Shown here: positions 3,833-22,636 of the stretch, piece after piece
How positions within the stretch are numbered: position 1 is the first letter of the stretch
Layout of the letters: each line of letters starts with the position of its first letter
Source: a virus
Length of the DNA stretch: 25,161 nt
Virus genome (UHGV): UHGV-1407879
Strand: one strand, 5' to 3'
The notes under the pieces: model-generated
The model's database searches: none
Told to the model about the DNA's origin: nothing
What the model saw: the letters and a program-made list of their open reading frames with translations, nothing else
Translations under genes and position numbers: made by a program

Positions 3833-4266
3833 GCAGAGTCACCGCGATTATCTCCGCTCTGGTTATCTGCATCATCGTCTGCCTGTCATGGGCTGTTAAT
3901 CACTACCGTGATAACGCCATCGCCTATAAAGAGCAGCGCGACAAAGCCGCATCTATCATCTCTGATATGCAGAAGCGTCAACGTGATGTAGCTGAACTCG
4001 ATGCCAGATACACAAAGGAGCTTGCTGATGCTAACGCGACTATCGAAAGTCTCCGTGCTGATGTTTCTGCTGGGCGTAAGCGCCTGCAGGTCGCCGCCAC
4101 CTGTGCAAAGTCAACGACCGGAGCCAGCGGCATGGGCGATGGAGAAAGCCCAAGACTTACAGCAGATGCTGAACTCAATTATTACCGTCTCCGAAGTGGA
4201 ATCGACAGGATAACCGCGCAGGTTAACTACCTGCAGGAATACATCAGGACGCAATGCCTTCGATGA
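3829..4266 (+). CDS. Rz: Spanin inner-membrane subunit Rz (i-spanin)
   Basis: 145 aa; N-terminal TM helix ([20 protein letters not shown]), coiled-coil periplasmic domain, ATGA overlap with R; diverged from lambda Rz but same architecture. Confidence 0.85.
4028..4213 (+). CDS. Rz1: Spanin outer-membrane lipoprotein Rz1 (o-spanin), embedded in +1 frame of Rz
   Basis: Embedded ORF with signal peptide and lipobox (LLGVSAC), proline-rich mature part ([13 protein letters not shown]). Start chosen at ATG 4028; the track ORF begins at 4001. Confidence 0.7.
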
Positions 4267-9494: not shown

Positions 9495-9584
9495 TTAACC
9501 CATAACGTGCAATGGCTGTCTTTATGAGGCCTGGCACCCTATTGCCTTCCGATGGGCTGAACATCGAGTAAACAGGGGTAACAA

Positions 9585-15705: not shown

Positions 15706-17037
15706 ATGGCTACGTGGCAACAGGGTATTAATTCTGGTGGTTTTCTGGCTGGCATTGGTGCGCAAAACGAGAATGCGCCAAAGGCAAGCGACATTAACGC
15801 AACGCTTGGTCTGATCCGCGAAAACAATGAACTGGCTCGCTCAGGTGCAAATAACGTTGGTCTGACCGCGTTACGTGGTCTGGCTGGAGTTGCTGATATT
15901 TATAAGCAGGAACAGCAACAGAAAGCGATTAGTGCGTTCAATAAGGTTCACGCTGATGCATGGGCTTCTGGTGATCCATCGGGACTATTTAAGTTTGCCC
16001 AGGAAAATCCAGCGTTTGTTGCACAGGCACAACAGGCGTTTTCCGGTCTTAATGAGCAGCAACGCAACGATATGGGCGATTTAGCCATGAGGGCTAACGT
16101 CGCTCTTTCTCAGGGACCGGAAGCCTACAGTAAATTCATTACTGACAACAAGGACAGGTTAAATCGCGTGGGTGCGAATGCTGACTGGATGATTCAGACA
16201 GGTATCCAGAATCCAGAGCAGCTATCACACATGCTGACTACTATGACGCTAGGGGCTGTTGGTCCGGATAAAATGCTGGATTATCAGGATAAGATGGTTG
16301 GTCGCCAACTAGAGAAAGGGCGATTGGATGAAAGCATCCGTCAGGCTGATATGGAGAATGCGAGAGGATGGGCAAATATCCAGAACGCTCAACTAGACAG
16401 GGCTCAGCGGGCACAAATGCATAATGATAACGTAGCCCTGAAGTTGCAGGAATTAGGGATGAAACAACAGGAAAGCGGAAAGATTGACCCAAAACTTGTT
16501 CGAGATCTGAATAGTGATATTAATGGGTTCTCAAAGAATTATTCTGCAATGCGCAGTGCTTCTGACAACCTACAAGCCCTTGGGAAGCGCAACACTCCAG
16601 CAGCGCAGTTGGGAATGATTTTCAACTATATGAAATCGCTGGATCCGCAATCTGTGGTACGCGAAGGTGAGCAAGTGCAGGTAAAACGCACTGATGGAAT
16701 ATTCGGCACACTTGGTAACTATGTTAGCCAATTATCTAACGGCAAGATGCTGAATAATGAGCAAGTCCAGGACTTAATCAATACCTCAAAACTGATGGCA
16801 AATACTGAAGGCGAAAAGTTTAACCAGCAAATGGATGATTATCTTTCAACTTATGGAGATTCTCTCCCCAGCGGACTAACTAAGCAATTGCAATCCAGAA
16901 AAGCCAAGCTGTATGAAGATATTCAGCAGCCTGCGCAACAACAGAGCAATAACCAACAACCGACAAATACCCAACAGCAGCAGAGTCAATCCGGATCATA
17001 TACCTCAAAATCAGGCATTCAATTTACGGTGGAATGA
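15706..17037 (+). CDS. Ejection protein (P22 gp20-like)
   Basis: 443 aa; synteny between gp7 and gp16; Q-rich C-terminus. Confidence 0.8.
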
Positions 17038-19160
17038 TGAAAGTAACTGCAAACGGAAAGACATTTACCTTCCCTGATGGTACGAGCACGGAAGATATTG
17101 GCACCGCCATTGATGAGTATTTTACTGGTCAGGCTGTTCAGCAACAAACAGTTAATCAGGCCAATAATGAACCAGCACGTGAAGAACCATCATTGATGCA
17201 ACAAGCTGGCGATTGGCTCACTGGTGGTCAAAGTGCAGGGCAAATTGCAGAACAGGCTGGTCGTGGTCTGGTAAACATACCATTTGATGTATTGCAGGGT
17301 GGCGCAAGTCTGATTAATGCAATCAGCCAGGGGCTTGGTGGGCCAAAAGTATTGGATGATGTTTATCGTCCAGTCGATCGACCGACAGACCCTTACGCGC
17401 AAGCCGGTGAAACAATTGGTGGGGATCTCCTGCCAATTGGCACAGCGGCAAAAGCTGCTGGAGCGCCAGCAAAGCTCGCTGGAGATATCGGTTCCGCAGG
17501 AAACATGATTGCAGGTTCTCTTGCTGATGCTGCAAATCAGGAGGGCGATTTTGCACAAAATGCTGCCATTAACGGTGGTATCAATATTGGTGCTCAAGGC
17601 GTTCTTTCAGGTGTCGGGCGCGTTATTGCGCCAAGGGTTTCACAGGCTCTTGGTGGTGCAGCACTGAATTCTGCTAATGATGTTTCTAGGATGGCAAAGT
17701 CAGGTGCTGGGCGTCAGTCAATTGCCAGTCAGGCCGCTAATGTGTCCGAAGATGTAGCAAAAGCGGCTGAGTCTGCTGGAATTGATATAAACGCATTAAC
17801 ACCAGGAATGCGATCTGGAAGTCGTGGAATTGCACAAGCCGAAGGCGCATTGGCATCAACACCTGGAATTGTTCAGGACGCCCATCAGGCAGCATTTAAC
17901 GAAATATCATCAAAGTTAAGTCGAAACCTTGATGAATTTGGGGCCACATCTGGAACGGCATCAGAAAAAAGTGCGGCTATAAAACAAAGGATTCTTCAAA
18001 ATCTTGATCAGATGAAGGATGCCGAGCGCGCGGCATGGGATGACGTGCGGTCAACAATGCCAAATCAAAAAGCAAGAATGCTAAATGGTAATGCCGTTAT
18101 TCAGGCAGAGCGATCTGCTGGCATACCGCTTACTCCTGAAATGAAACAGTTTGTTCAGGCAAACAATCAAGGTGGAGTAACATTTGATGGCATGAAAGCA
18201 TGGAGAGCGAAATTTGCTGATGCGGAGCAAAAATATAAGCGTAGCGGAGAGGCAAATGCGGCAAGGAGAGCAGGGGAAATACGCCGGGCAATTACTGATG
18301 ATATGCGCACAATGGCGGAAAACGGCGGATTTCTTGATGACTGGCAGAAAGCTAATGATCTGTCTAAAGCGAGGTTATCAGCACAAGAGAGTGCAGAGTC
18401 TGTTTTCGGGCGTGATTTGGCAACAGATGCACTGATTACGAATGGAGTAAAATCCCTTCAATCATCGTCAGCTAAAGGTCTTAATGGTCCTGCTGGATTC
18501 CATTCTATGATCCGCGCGCTGCCAGAATCAGAGCGTGTTCCTGCTATATCATCAATGTTGCAAGATGCTATCTCGCATGGTGTACGTGGTGGCAAAGCTG
18601 ATGCAGCAGGAATTAACCATATCGCAGAGATACTGACTCCACAAAATGTAAAAGCCATTAGCCGATATTCCTCAGAGCTTGGAAGAATTGCTGATGCATA
18701 TGGCACTCTTGCAAGAGCAGCAGTGAAACCTCAGCAGTATATTGAAAGAACAGGTAGAACTGCCAATGTACTACGCGATCTGGATGCTGGTTTATCCAAC
18801 GTCACATCAACAGTGTTAAATGCAATTGCCAATTCAACATCAGGTGCCATTGTTGGTGGCGCTGGAGGAGGCATTGCAGGCGCTGCCGCAGGTGCTTTAG
18901 TTGGCGCTGGGTTAAAAGGCGCTGTATCTAAAATTGCCACCACACGTAGTGGTCGGTATGCGATAGAGAAAGCGGTTCAGGAAGCAACTAAAGCAGTAAG
19001 AGCAGGCGGAAGCAAAGAAGCATTAGCGGCGGCGGAACGCAGATTTATGGCAAATAAGGCCGCCGTAAAAGCAATACGCGAGGCACTAGGAAACGAAGAG
19101 TTCCAGCGTTTAGCAAGGGCTGGAATTGTGGCATCGCTAAGCGGAATGGCACAGGAGTAA
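17034..19160 (+). CDS. Ejection protein (P22 gp16-like), extended
   Basis: 708 aa; last gene of the ejection-protein trio; Gly/Ala-rich segments ([21 protein letters not shown]); ATGA overlap with gp20. Confidence 0.8.
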
Positions 19161-19490
19161 TTAGTCATCCATGGATGGATTGAGCTTATCTCGTGTTGAT
19201 GTGGCAATTTTACCAACATTTTTCAACCAAGATTTTAAGAAGGATATGTCGTCCTTAATATCATGAATATCCTCATTCTTTATACGATCAACCTTATCCT
19301 CTAGGCTCTCTATAGAACGCTCAATGCTAGACAGAGAGATTTTTAAGTCTCCTTGCTCACGTTCCAGTGAGGATTTGAGAGCACAATATTCGTTTTCTAG
19401 AATTCCTATTTTTTTTGTTAGAGAGTGCATTCGATACTCATACACCAAACTAGAAACGACTAATGCAGCCAACAGAAACCATTCAAGCAC
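19161..19490 (-). CDS. Small membrane-anchored coiled-coil protein (109 aa), unknown function
   Basis: GTG start preceded by AAGGAGG with about 5-nt spacing; N-terminal TM helix (LEWFLLAALVVSSLVY) then heptad-rich acidic domain; AT-rich codon usage by eye. Confidence 0.6.
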   Translation of the reverse strand: MLEWFLLAALVVSSLVYEYRMHSLTKKIGILENEYCALKSSLEREQGDLKISLSSIERSIESLEDKVDRIKNEDIHDIKDDISFLKSWLKNVGKIATSTRDKLNPSMDD

Positions 19491-19572
19491 ACCAACCTCC
19501 TTAGTTTTGTGCAGGATACCATGATGTCAGTGCAAGGGGGAGAAAGTCTCCTCATTATCTGATTTGCAATTT

Positions 19573-19608
19573 ACGTGCATATTTAAATATTGCACGTTAC
19601 AACGTGCA
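19573..19608. promoter_or_regulatory. Operator-like triple half-site ACGTGCA / TGCACGT / ACGTGCA in divergent promoter region
   Basis: ACGTGCA (19573-19579), 11-bp AT spacer TATTTAAATAT, TGCACGT (19591-19597), TACA, ACGTGCA (19602-19608); a TTGCAA -35-like hexamer lies at 19564-19569. Confidence 0.5.
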
Positions 19609-19643
19609 TGTGTATGATTGACTTATCAATCACAACACGAGAT

Positions 19644-20657
19644 ATGCTCATGAAAAATGATGATGTTAGTGGGAAGGCCAAAGGCGGTAAGGCACGCGCG
19701 GCAAAAATGACAGCAGAGCAAAGAAAAGAATCCTCAAGAAAGGCTGTTGCCGCAAAAAAAGAAAAAGCTTTATTGCCCGTATCTGCGAATGAGGGAAAGT
19801 TAAAGATCGGTGATGCGGAATTAGATGTCGCGGTTCTCGAAAATGGACGGCGTATCATATCACAAGCTTCTGTTTTTAAAGCATTTGGCCGACCACAAAG
19901 AGGGGGTAGAGCACCTCAAGAAGAGGGTGTGATCAATATGCCCGCTTTTATGGATGCTGCAAACCTTAAAAAATATATAAATCAAGATGTTATGGATGTG
20001 ATCAATAAGGTCAAATACAAGACGATTACTGGCTCCGTCCAGGAAGGTTATGACGCATCCATAATACCTCTTGTCTGCGATGTTTATTTAAAGGCAAGAG
20101 AGGCAGGCGCTATCACCAGGCCAAACCAGTTAGAGACAGCCAAGAAAGCTGAAATTCTGGTGCGCTCATTAGCTAAAGTCGGAATAATAGCGCTTGTTGA
20201 TGAAGCGACGGGGTACCAGCGAGATAGAGAAAAAGATGCACTCGCCAAAATACTCGAGGCCTTTGTCGCAAAGGAAATTCAACCTTATATTACAACATTT
20301 CCTGCTGATTATTATGAAGAGCTTTTCAGGTTAAGGGGCTTAGAATCCCCGCCGGAAAATCCCCGCTTCCGGCCTCAGTATTTTGGCGTTTTGACAAATG
20401 ATATCGTCTACAAGAGATTGGCACCAAACATCCTTGAGGAGCTTAAAAAGCAGAACGTAAAGGCCTCAAAAGGTACAAAGTTGTTTCAGGGGCTGACGCC
20501 AAATATTGGATATCAAAAATTAAGAGAGCATCTGTCATCAACCGTTACGATTATGAAGCTATCTAACGATTATTCAGATTTTATTGCAAAAATGAATCGC
20601 CTGCATCCAAGGTTTGAGGATGTGAAAACAGACGAACTGGATGATTCAGACAAGTAA
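19644..20657 (+). CDS. Hypothetical protein with lysine-rich basic N-terminus (338 aa from ATG 19644; ORF open from 19590)
   Basis: Long ORF with own promoter/operator upstream and terminator downstream. The track start at 19590 is a TTG inside the operator; ATGs at 19608, 19614, 19644 and 19650 are alternative starts. Basic low-complexity N-terminal tail (SGKAKGGKARAAKMTAEQRKESSRKAVAAKKEK) then globular domain. Confidence 0.6.
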   Translation: MLMKNDDVSGKAKGGKARAAKMTAEQRKESSRKAVAAKKEKALLPVSANEGKLKIGDAELDVAVLENGRRIISQASVFKAFGRPQRGGRAPQEEGVINMPAFMDAANLKKYINQDVMDVINKVKYKTITGSVQEGYDASIIPLVCDVYLKAREAGAITRPNQLETAKKAEILVRSLAKVGIIALVDEATGYQRDREKDALAKILEAFVAKEIQPYITTFPADYYEELFRLRGLESPPENPRFRPQYFGVLTNDIVYKRLAPNILEELKKQNVKASKGTKLFQGLTPNIGYQKLREHLSSTVTIMKLSNDYSDFIAKMNRLHPRFEDVKTDELDDSDK

Positions 20658-20661
20658 CAGT

Positions 20662-20686
20662 AACCCACCTTCAGGTGGGTTTTTTG
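20662..20686. terminator. Bidirectional rho-independent terminator between convergent genes
   Basis: ACCCACC-TTCA-GGTGGGT hairpin followed by TTTTT on + strand; A-run on the other side; overlaps the last codons of mnt. Confidence 0.65.
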
Positions 20687-20922
20687 TACAAATCCTTCAG
20701 CGTATCAAACACCATCTTCTTAACAAGCTCTGACTGCTCATCAGCGAGTCGTTCTGCATCGTCGCGATAGCCTGCAATCGGTGATGGTTTTGATAGCGCA
20801 TCCTGAACGATTTGTAATAACTCTGAGTTCATTGACCTTCCGTTAGCCTCTGCTCTTAATTTCAATTTTTCTCTTACTTCCAAAGGCATACGGAAGTTAA
20901 AGTGCGGATCGTCTCTAGCCAT
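20671..20922 (-). CDS. mnt: Mnt repressor (ribbon-helix-helix)
   Basis: 83 aa, near-identical to P22 Mnt from memory (ARDDPHFNFRMP.EVREKLK.RAEANGRSMNSELLQIVQDALSKPSP...). Confidence 0.9.
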   Translation of the reverse strand: MARDDPHFNFRMPLEVREKLKLRAEANGRSMNSELLQIVQDALSKPSPIAGYRDDAERLADEQSELVKKMVFDTLKDLYKKPT

Positions 20923-20945
20923 GCCATCACTCCAAGTTAGTATCT

Positions 20946-21209
20946 CTAACTTTCGTCTTTATTGTTGCTATACATGCATTTCAACTTCTCAACATCATGT
21001 TCAAGATCTATCAATCGTGATGCTATAGTTGCAAGGTCTAGTGCTTGAATGTGTTTATTTTTTTCGGTCCATGCTTCAAGTGCCGCGACCATCTCAGCAT
21101 TTAATGAACGAGAATTAGCCTCAGCCAGTTCAATAAGACGTTCCTTTATCTCTACAGGAAGCCTCAGATTCACTTGAGGGTTTTTGTACTTACGATCAGA
21201 CATTGGCAC
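20946..21209 (-). CDS. Second Mnt/Arc-family ribbon-helix-helix regulator (87 aa)
   Basis: N-terminal RHH signature (NLRLPVEIKERLIELAEANSRSLNAEMVAAL) plus C-terminal helical extension as in Mnt; lies between mnt and the operator region. Confidence 0.7.
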   Translation of the reverse strand: MPMSDRKYKNPQVNLRLPVEIKERLIELAEANSRSLNAEMVAALEAWTEKNKHIQALDLATIASRLIDLEHDVEKLKCMYSNNKDES

Positions 21210-21249
21210 ATCCTGAATAATTTTTTACCACAGGATATGTAGGTATCTA

Positions 21250-21278
21250 TTGACTATCAATGCGTACCTAAATACTAT
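21250..21278 (+). promoter_or_regulatory. Pant-like promoter with overlapping operator repeats
   Basis: -35 TTGACT (21250-21255), 17-bp spacer, -10 TACTAT (21273-21278); palindrome ATTGA-CTA-TCAAT (21249-21261); direct repeats ATGCGTACC at 21260-21268 and 21281-21289. Confidence 0.55.
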
Positions 21279-21308
21279 GTATGCGTACCACATACAACGG
21301 AGGATGCA

Positions 21309-21449
21309 ATGAAGGTAAAAACACTGCGTATGCCAGAGAAGTTAGAAAAAATCCTTGAAGAGAAAGCAAAGGAAGAGTGTCGCTCATTTAGTGCAGAAGT
21401 AATTAAACGGGTGATGGACAGCCTGAAGAGAGAGGGGATAACGGTATGA
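21309..21449 (+). CDS. arc: Arc-like ribbon-helix-helix repressor (46 aa)
   Basis: Not in the ORF track (under 60 aa). GGAGG 6 nt upstream of ATG 21309; translation MKVKTLRMPEKLEKILEEKAKEECRSFSAEVIKRVMDSLKREGITV aligns with the P22 Arc strand-helix-helix pattern (FNLRWPREVLDLVRKVAEENGRSVNSEIYQRVMESFKKEG). Confidence 0.7.
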   Translation: MKVKTLRMPEKLEKILEEKAKEECRSFSAEVIKRVMDSLKREGITV

Positions 21450-21649
21450 GTAAAGAATGTTGTTTCTGCGGCATTAGCGAATCAGACGCTGATCAAACAT
21501 ACATTTACTCTAAAGAAACAGGTCGGATGCTGTGTAGTGACTGCGTGTTGGACATCATAAGATACAAGCATCTTGGATGTTCTGCCAGCATTAGCAATAT
21601 AGGTGAAGTATATGAAGGGAAAGATATAACTGATAGAGCAGAAAGTTGA
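21446..21649 (+). CDS. Small Cys-rich protein (67 aa), putative zinc-ribbon
   Basis: ATGA overlap with the arc stop (translational coupling); cysteine pattern CCFC...CSDC...C. Confidence 0.5.
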   Translation: MSKECCFCGISESDADQTYIYSKETGRMLCSDCVLDIIRYKHLGCSASISNIGEVYEGKDITDRAES

Positions 21650-21712
21650 AGCCCCAACTGCGGTAACAGTCAGGGCTTCGGTATCGTAAAACCACGCATA
21701 GGAATTAACGAC

Positions 21713-22636
21713 ATGAAAAGTATAGCAACAGCAGTATCTACTATCAATGTACCATTCCACGGCGCAGAGCTTTATGTTGTTAATCACAACGGTGAGCCGT
21801 ACACCCCAATGAAACCTATCGTTGAGGGAATGGGTATGGATTGGGCTTCACAGTTTACAAAGTTAAAACAAAGATTTGCTAAAGGTATTGTGGAAATCGC
21901 AATACCTTCAGTTGGCGGTGTGCAGAACATGATTTGCCTTGCTTTACGTAAACTGAATGGCTGGTTGCAAACCATCAGCCCTAACAAAGTCCGCCCTGAA
22001 ATCCGCGACAATGTAATCCAGTATCAAGAAGAGTGTGACGATGTGCTATACGAGTACTGGACTAAAGGCCATGTAGTTAACCCACGCAAAGCTAAAAAGG
22101 CGTTGCCGGGTAAAATCACCACTGAACAGCAGGAAGCCATTAAACAACTCGTCATGAGTCGCGGTCAGTCTCTGCCAAAAGAAAAACAGGCTAAGGCGAT
22201 GATCACCATGTGGTCGTCACTAAAATCCCATTTTGGATGTTCGTACAAAGAAATCAGTGAGGAGCAGTTTACCGAAGCACTATCACTTGCAGCTCGAGTT
22301 CCACTTGAAGGTGAGTTCATTGGCAAACAAGAGAAGAAAACCAACGAGCTTTCTGCAAAAGAAGCAAACAGCCTTGTATGGTTATGGGATTATGCCAACC
22401 GCTCACAGGCATTATTCCGCGAACTGTATCCGGCATTAAAACAAATTCAATCGAACTATTCCGGCAGATGTCATGACTGCGGTTATGAGTTCTCCCGTAT
22501 TATCGATATAGCGAGAGACGTTTTAATCAATCACACACGAGATGTTGATATCAATGAGCCAGACGGACCAACGAATCTTTCCGCATGGATGAGACTTAAG
22601 AATAAAGAATTACCTCCTTCAGTACATAACTACTGA
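21713..22636 (+). CDS. ant: Antirepressor Ant-like protein
   Basis: 307 aa in the position of P22 ant (downstream of arc, upstream of tailspike); assignment by synteny and size, not by recalled sequence. Confidence 0.55.
   Translation: MKSIATAVSTINVPFHGAELYVVNHNGEPYTPMKPIVEGMGMDWASQFTKLKQRFAKGIVEIAIPSVGGVQNMICLALRKLNGWLQTISPNKVRPEIRDNVIQYQEECDDVLYEYWTKGHVVNPRKAKKALPGKITTEQQEAIKQLVMSRGQSLPKEKQAKAMITMWSSLKSHFGCSYKEISEEQFTEALSLAARVPLEGEFIGKQEKKTNELSAKEANSLVWLWDYANRSQALFRELYPALKQIQSNYSGRCHDCGYEFSRIIDIARDVLINHTRDVDINEPDGPTNLSAWMRLKNKELPPSVHNY

Follow-up and report, generated by a model that had tools for sequence, protein, structure and literature searches.

Among the closest described counterparts of the element analysed here are the O_mnt and O_arc operators in the immI region of phage P22, in which short inverted subsites, spaced by roughly a helical turn, lie over a promoter, and where small phage-encoded proteins regulate a moron-like region. 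The repeat array described below resembles them in arrangement and lies in the same neighbourhood. However, O_mnt and O_arc are bound by ribbon-helix-helix tetramers, whereas the box sequence of this array is unrelated, its candidate binder is not a ribbon-helix-helix protein, and the cassette of which it is part occurs outside P22-like phages as well. A second likeness is to toxin-antitoxin operators and to the self-repression of IS1 by InsA, where an element carries its own operator and is expressed independently of context; as in other autoregulated mobile modules, the transposon-borne form of the array lies between transposase and cargo genes. Unlike toxin-antitoxin modules, the phage cassette has no antitoxin-like partner, and unlike the terminal repeats bound by InsA, the boxes are internal and dissimilar to the repeats of their transposon.

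The gene beside the array encodes a P63C-domain protein. Unlike Bro-N, KilA-N and antirepressor proteins (Ant, Roi), it has no Pfam Bro-N or KilA-N match, and the residue that tracks the box sequence sits in a separate N-terminal helix. Basic-region helices of bZIP and bHLH factors read ACGT-core palindromes, and here too a Lys/Arg/Ala-rich helix goes with half-sites containing ACGTG or GCGTG, but without significant similarity, a leucine zipper or an HLH, so that the likeness is an analogy and not a family assignment. As with phage morons, phages that are otherwise similar may have or lack the P63C gene, and it has its own downstream terminator, with a further terminator abutting the first box in relatives; unlike the usual morons, its control region appears ancient and family-wide, and its cargo seems to derive from an IS1-family transposon. 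An autoregulatory operator would be of a known kind, while the box family and the candidate DNA-binding module appear to be undescribed.

Genomic context and structure of the array

The window, meaning the whole stretch of DNA analysed (25,161 nucleotides of the virus genome UHGV-1407879), is the late region of a P22/HK620-like prophage. Genes for DNA-transfer proteins, ending with a gp16-like gene (17034-19160), are followed by an hkcB-like gene on the minus strand (19161-19490; 109 aa, phrog_5962) and then by the long ORF with the P63C domain. The 109-aa protein has a predicted N-terminal hydrophobic segment and coiled coil, and matched defence profiles only weakly and insignificantly (DpdH, E 4.5e-4). 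Beyond the long ORF lie the genes for Mnt (20671-20922, minus strand), a second Mnt/Arc-like protein of 87 aa (20946-21209, minus strand) and a short Arc-like protein of 46 aa (21309-21449, plus strand), and a Cys-rich ORF of 67 aa (21446-21649, plus strand; phrog_7150) that precedes ant; Ant and then the tailspike come after the Arc-like genes. With the 87-, 46- and 67-aa extras, this immI region carries a richer gene set than that of P22.

Positions 19573-19608 read ACGTGCA-TATTTAAATAT-TGCACGT-TACA-ACGTGCA, exactly the three ACGTGCA half-sites, 11-bp AT spacer and 4-bp gap that an earlier note on this DNA had described. We refer to the boxes as S1 (ACGTGCA, 19573-19579, plus strand; ACGTGCAT at 19573-19580 in its 8-nt form), S2 (19591-19597, TGCACGT on the plus strand and hence ACGTGCA on the minus strand) and S3 (ACGTGCA, 19602-19608, plus strand). 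An AT-rich spacer of 11 bp (19580-19590) separates S1 from S2, and S2 and S3 together form a perfect 8-2-8 palindrome of 18 bp, TGCACGTT-AC-AACGTGCA, of which S3 is the right half. The motif search that the note had proposed found ACGTGCA-N11-TGCACGT, the 7-N11-7 inverted repeat, only once in the window; the 7-mer occurs five times in the 25,161 bases on both strands, three times in the array and otherwise only at 9505 and 14681.

Judged on the window alone, the array is only modestly unusual: when the window was simulated 2000 times with a first-order Markov model, 89 of the simulated windows (about 4.5%) contained a comparable cluster, defined as three non-overlapping copies of any 7-mer, in mixed orientation, within 36 bp. 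What gives the array its weight is therefore comparison with other sequences.

The P63C gene and its start codon

The gene downstream of the array (19650-20657, plus strand) encodes 335 aa from ATG 19650 and matches P63C at residues 201-291 (Pfam PF10546, E 3.3e-22, 79.3 bits against a gathering cut-off of 26.1); its product corresponds over its full length to phrog_2384, of unknown function. As the earlier note had stated, the repeats overlap the first in-frame codons of the mechanically called 355-aa ORF (TTG 19590), and they also overlap the RefSeq-style start at ATG 19608. The RefSeq/PGAP annotation (e.g. WP_000335901.1, NP_049495.1; 349 aa) starts at this ATG, inside S3. The codons that overlap the repeats are not conserved as coding sequence. 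Instead, 22 homologues of about 325-345 aa, at 54-99% identity, align from ATG 19650, and positions 19590-19649 are conserved as DNA in relatives even where they are out of frame or interrupted by stops. Because homologues start at 19650 and the preceding stretch is conserved regardless of frame, the comparison indicates that 19650 is the true start, that the product is probably 335 aa and that TTG 19590 and ATG 19608 are wrong. Of the two downstream positions that had been suggested, 19644 and 19650, it is the second that is borne out, with essentially all homologues beginning there.

PADLOC defence profiles and NCBIfam gave insignificant matches only, both for the P63C and for the 109-aa protein, and a PDB sequence search with the P63C family profile gave no match. 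A literature search on P63C/PF10546, L0095, 933W transcripts and IS1 passenger genes found no functional or transcript data.

A mobile cassette in unrelated phages

The boxes, the P63C gene and a terminator make up a mobile 1.2-kb cassette (19501-20700, plus strand), 99.3% identical to a part of the nin region of the Stx2 phage 933W, in which it has other neighbours and the gene is L0095. The same cassette is found in many Stx phages and in 363 of 5,426 complete E. coli genomes. Homology to 933W begins 72 bp 5' of the first repeat and ends just past a bidirectional intrinsic terminator (20662-20681), which closes the cassette, is shared with mnt and is kept in the 933W copy; HK620 carries hkcC at the cassette position instead. 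With its own terminator, the same 1.2 kb in 933W and hkcC in its place in HK620, the cassette is by its layout an insulated moron. Alignment with HK620 and 933W places a 13-codon mini-ORF (MMSVQGGESLLII and stop; 19521-19562, plus strand), with a Shine-Dalgarno-like AGGA, at the left junction of the cassette, where it remains as the truncated beginning of an hkcC-type gene. Flanking sequence is still present in the 933W copy, on one side about 25 bp from the HK620-type region upstream of hkcC and on the other approximately the last 8 codons of mnt (window 19501-19525 and 20682-20700; locus L001 3001-3025 and about 4180-4200). These remnants point to a P22-like immI region as the source of the 933W copy, and show the probable course of its movement, from there into a lambdoid nin region. 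The 933W copy has no neighbour like the 109-aa gene, which is therefore not part of the cassette, and the proposal that the array controls a divergent gene pair is doubtful here.

More distant relatives occur in still other contexts. The settings of homologues at 90, 87, 82 and 72% identity are a tail operon, the vicinity of a cI-like repressor, another immI region and a baseplate operon. Each of these homologues has an upstream region of 130-170 bp in which the boxes stand at -77/-59/-48 (or -80/-62/-51) relative to the ATG; their spacers and flanks show no relationship. Over the wider range of 33-90% identity, homologues in unrelated phage contexts likewise keep the boxes at equal distance from the ATG, and in several relatives a strong terminator abuts S1. 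Among homologous cassettes S1 is kept at the same distance from the ATG with single uncompensated changes, and the S1-S2 spacer is kept in length (10-11 bp) but variable in sequence; in an alignment of the 12-sequence clade, TTGCACG of S2 is invariant and the positions of S3 are nearly so. A fourth box position, S4 (19620-19626), is degenerate in the window (GACTTAT), intact in three relatives (TGCACGT; L086, L005, L168) and partial in five (TGCTCGT; L003, L084, L004, L088, L098). The window array is accordingly best described as three of an ancestral four 'P63C boxes', the fourth having probably decayed or been lost.

Repeated and inverted sites are thus inherited together with the gene across genomic contexts, and on this comparative evidence we regard the array as a cis element that belongs to the P63C gene and moves with it. 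The array lies in an immI neighbourhood beside three ribbon-helix-helix genes, and S2 and S3 are 11 bp apart from centre to centre, like the subsites of Arc-type operators, which would fit binding by a prophage repressor (Mnt, its 87-aa Mnt/Arc-like paralogue, Arc or the immC repressor). However, these repressor genes are lacking in 933W and in the tail-operon and cI-adjacent settings, where the gene nevertheless comes with its boxes, and the mnt-arc-ant control region (20923-21712) has no copy of the 7-mer. The earlier note had named the prophage repressors as possible binders, and this part of its proposal finds no support, as the same boxes go with the gene in phages with other immunity systems and in transposons of other phyla.

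Distribution of the boxes across phyla

For 77 P63C genes, sampled from Proteobacteria, Actinobacteria, Chloroflexi, Acidobacteria, Planctomycetes and others, we compared the sequence surrounding the start with equally long coding and far-upstream stretches as controls. TGCAAGCA/TGCTTGCA occurred in 93 copies in 43 upstream regions, against one copy in the coding and none in the far-upstream controls. ACGTGCA had 25 upstream copies in 12 loci, against one coding and three far-upstream copies, and TGCACGCA had 16 upstream copies in nine loci, against none and one. The boxes are variants of one 8-mer, RCKTGCAT, and include GCTTGCAT, GCGTGCAT and, in the window, ACGTGCAT; the commonest is ATGCTTGCAT. 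Over the 77 loci and their controls, RCKTGCAT boxes are found in 2-4 copies 5' of P63C genes and almost nowhere else. One layout, > N10-11 < N2-4 > N10-11 <, with start-to-start distances of 17-18, 11-12 and 16-18 nt, recurs in distant lineages: it was found in the clade of the window, in Nitrosospira (L072), Mesorhizobium (L043), Roseicyclus (L069), Pseudomonas (L020) and others, and the four-box form is present in L072, L043, L069, L025, L019 and L047. In other lineages box orientations and spacings differ.

In IMG/VR the palindrome TGCACGT-N4-ACGTGCA has 102 exact matches, of which 26 lie 50-78 nt 5' of a P63C gene, including those of homologues at only 33-54% identity. The outer box was present in 22 of these 26 and in none of the other 76, and further targets of the composite motif sought in IMG/VR did not turn up outside P63C genes; the composite is therefore specific to the P63C family. 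A chance cluster of a short palindromic word would be consistent with the 4.5% of simulated windows that hold some such cluster and with the 76 occurrences elsewhere of the central palindrome by itself. The conservation of the repeats at a fixed position in many independent contexts is decisive against it, and leaves this explanation with a negligible probability.

The same distribution bears on the identity of the binder. Only the P63C gene is common to all contexts, which makes both the prophage repressors and a host transcription factor unlikely binders. Related boxes occur in Actinobacteria, Chloroflexi and Acidobacteria, a spread across phyla that itself speaks against a host factor. Moreover, the box variant follows the P63C protein and not host taxonomy, with the TGCACGC type (GCGTGCAT) present in Pantoea, Aquincola, Microbacterium, Citricoccus and Solirubrobacterales. 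Taking the evidence on both sides together, we consider binding by a prophage repressor or host factor highly improbable. Separately, the boxes were compared by eye with the consensus sites of the host factors NsrR, PurR, CytR, NikR, LexA and NarL, and these factors were rejected.

N-terminal motif and residue 28

Near its N-terminus the P63C protein carries a basic motif, GGKARAAKMTAEQRKESSRKAVAAK (codons 12-36; 19683-19757, plus strand), of the family form GGxARAxx[L/M]TxExRxx[I/S]AxKAAxAR[W], which is a candidate DNA-recognition helix and which, within the window, is found in this protein alone. In an AF2 model the motif forms two helices, residues 9-18 and 22-40, the second of which contains residue 28; confidence is modest in the motif (pLDDT 54-76), compared with a mean pLDDT of 79 for the rest of the model. 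That remainder weakly resembles Bro-N/KilA/antirepressor proteins, DdrC and the Dachshund/Ski domain, all of them DNA-binding folds matched at low scores, and a Foldseek search of the model against PDB gave no match. Pfam searches with the N-terminal 190 and 113 residues (E<=10) also gave none, and a motif profile against PDB gave insignificant matches only (sIHF, E 0.2; HIF-1alpha basic region, E 5.9).

Codon 28 (Ser in the window; 19731-19733, plus strand) tracks one base of the box. Boxes centred on AAG went with Ile28 in 35 of 35 genome loci and 13 of 13 independent viral loci, and those centred on ACG with Ser or Ala28 in 13 of 13 genome loci and two of two viral loci, so that residue and box centre agreed in all 63 clear cases; with only about 150 bp between box and codon, recombination could have passed the two on together, and this, rather than selection for matching, could account for part of the co-variation. 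Proteins with Ser or Ala form at least five groups, and over residues 42-330 the closest relatives of these groups are of the Ile type. Residue 28 thus appears to behave like a base-contacting residue that reads the third base of the box.

We propose that the array is an operator bound by the N-terminal basic motif of the P63C protein, and that binding represses the P63C gene; we put the probability of this reading at roughly 0.6. In it, three things are inferred: that the protein physically binds, where the promoter lies, and that regulation is negative, namely repression. The P63C protein would bind the boxes through its basic two-helix motif, with residue 28 reading the third base. Of what the earlier note had proposed, a dedicated repressor or autoregulator site tied to this gene is supported, with an autoregulator the best candidate, and prophage repressors as binders are not.

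Proposed promoter, leader and mode of regulation

Alignment suggests a promoter at 19590-19618 on the plus strand, with a -35 TTGCAC (19590-19595, in S2), a spacing of 17 bp and a -10 TATGAT (19613-19618), which together match 8 of 12 consensus positions. A scan of 19100-21800 for sigma-70 promoters (two hexamers, 16-18 bp spacing, >=9/12 matches) found none over the repeats and none on the plus strand in 19404-19986; the proposed promoter is missing from the scan because 8/12 lies below its threshold, and the promoter model therefore comes from the alignment only. A -10-like hexamer (TATAAT, TATGAT or TTTAAT) stands 3' of S3 in all clade members, and in distant relatives the S3-S4 spacer is AT-rich and the S1-S2 spacer is not. 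The earlier note had placed a putative -10 and the transcription start under the half-sites. A -10 in the AT-rich spacer between S1 and S2 is improbable, since that spacer is often not AT-rich, or is directly preceded by a terminator, in relatives, and the hexamer just after S3 also counts against it.

Under the promoter model, S2 would lie on the -35, S3 in the spacer between -35 and -10, and S1 near -50; where S4 is present it would lie on the -10 and start, extending the array over roughly -55 to -1. Bound P63C protein would cover roughly -55 to -15, or down to about -1 with S4 intact, and would shut off its own promoter by occlusion. Such autoregulation would keep expression of the cassette low and steady, whatever the phage or host.

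The boxes might instead be an activator site, serving positive autoregulation or a MerR-like remodelling of the promoter. In most members of the clade 19 bp separate TTGCAC from the best -10, TATAAT, the S2/S3 palindrome falls in this interval, and the -35 is a poor one; a long spacer with a palindrome between the hexamers is a geometry known for MerR-type activators. However, the spacing of TTGCAC and TATGAT in the window is a normal 17 bp, four boxes over about -55 to -1 are more typical of occlusion, and the P63C protein is unrelated to MerR. We consider activation unlikely.

A conserved leader block, TCACAACACGAGA (19630-19642, plus strand), lies 8 nt before the ATG and contains the only Shine-Dalgarno-like GAG. 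It is nearly invariant in 12 enterobacterial cassettes, although its frame relative to the ATG differs. In some relatives CACGAG of this block can pair with an upstream CTCGTG; the window instead has a hairpin, TGATTGA/TCAATCA (19615-19632), at the leader block. In many distant homologues (L047, L051, L053, L057, L061, L074) the last box overlaps the start codon (TGCAAGCATG), and an AT-rich hexamer lies about 8 nt upstream, which suggests leaderless mRNAs whose start may be covered by the operator.

A stronger sigma-70-like site than the proposed promoter (TTGAGA-17-TAGAAT, 10/12; 19375-19403, plus strand) lies outside the cassette, in the HK620-homologous part, and could transcribe through the boxes. 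It lends some credit to an RNA switch, in which hairpins S1:S2 and S2:S3 in a leader initiated upstream would be alternatives controlling translation or termination. S1 equals S3 and each is complementary to S2, and the RNA of 19565-19660 folds better than its shuffles (z -3.1), as that of any inverted repeat would. In the 12-sequence clade alignment, however, there are no compensatory changes, against four uncompensated breaks in S2:S3 and 11 in S1:S2. The terminator abutting S1 places the boxes of several relatives outside the upstream transcript, orientations and spacings differ between lineages, and all copies, direct repeats included, switch sequence along with the protein residue. An Rfam search of the region (E<=1) and of eight related loci returned nothing relevant, and an RNA switch seems very unlikely to us.

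An IS1-family transposon form

P63C genes of many phyla are cargo of an IS1-family transposon. At about 16 distant loci they stand divergent to a gene for an IS1-family DDE transposase-like protein, for which Pfam confirms DDE_Tnp_IS1 in six (L081, L079, L067, L044, L073, L037). The unit measures 2.3-3.6 kb and is made up of this divergent transposase gene, the boxes, the P63C gene and a short convergent ORF; in this ancestral transposon form the array lies between two divergent genes. Inverted repeats of about 20 bp, GGTAGTG(T/G)(C/G)TCAGTTTGAA, flank it on both sides in 10 loci, and eight of these loci also show a matching target duplication at the flanks, of 8 bp in seven cases and of 7 bp in L039, with none seen in L037 or L072. 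Examples are L057 2009-4356, L067 1604-4491, L042 923-4488, L082 1930-5397, L079 2086-5465, L061 1251-4363 and L077 1646-4568.

The finding of the gene inside a transposon with inverted repeats in at least 10 distant loci raises the possibility that the boxes serve DNA transactions, such as transposition or cassette capture, and not transcription. Against this, the boxes of the transposon form occur only internally, between the transposase and P63C genes, and are absent from the element ends; they are also fully conserved in phage cassettes that lack a transposase and terminal repeats. The chance of such a role is slim.

Just 3' of P63C, the transposon form encodes a small convergent protein of 68-129 aa (mostly 75-92 aa) that has no Pfam or NCBIfam family (L037 3975-4226, L057 4012-4290 and L082 3978-4244, all minus strand, and 13 more loci). 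Its C-terminus bears GGKARAxxLTPExRxEIAKKAAxxRW, the same basic motif as in P63C. This partner could compete for the same boxes, or be their true ligand in transposon-borne relatives.

A scan of the window for the transposon repeats found none within four mismatches, and there is no transposase. The phage cassette looks like captured transposon cargo that has kept its operator. In its fullest form, this idea is that the motif shared by P63C and its partner is an undescribed, sequence-specific DNA-binding module, that four RCKTGCAT boxes control a widespread IS1-family cargo transposon, and that temperate phages, such as 933W and P22-like prophages, captured both cargo and operator. We offer it tentatively, at somewhat below even odds.

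Implications for P63C proteins

The P63C proteins are a very large, functionally uncharacterised family, of which more than 7,600 relatives were scored here, and the E. coli carriers of the gene include the Stx2 phage 933W of O157:H7. For the gene in the window the annotated start is corrected from 19608 (RefSeq-style) to 19650. The comparison also ties a widespread phage moron to a transposon of the IS1 family and so suggests a route by which such cassettes spread. If residue 28 sets specificity, an S28I protein would prefer GCTTGCAT (or at least ACTTGCAT) over ACGTGCAT, and the converse preference would be expected for an Ile-type homologue. A family-wide operator together with a candidate specificity residue would be a first experimental handle on P63C proteins, offering a DNA probe of defined sequence, a swap of specificity by a single residue and the prediction that the gene would regulate itself wherever the cassette lands.
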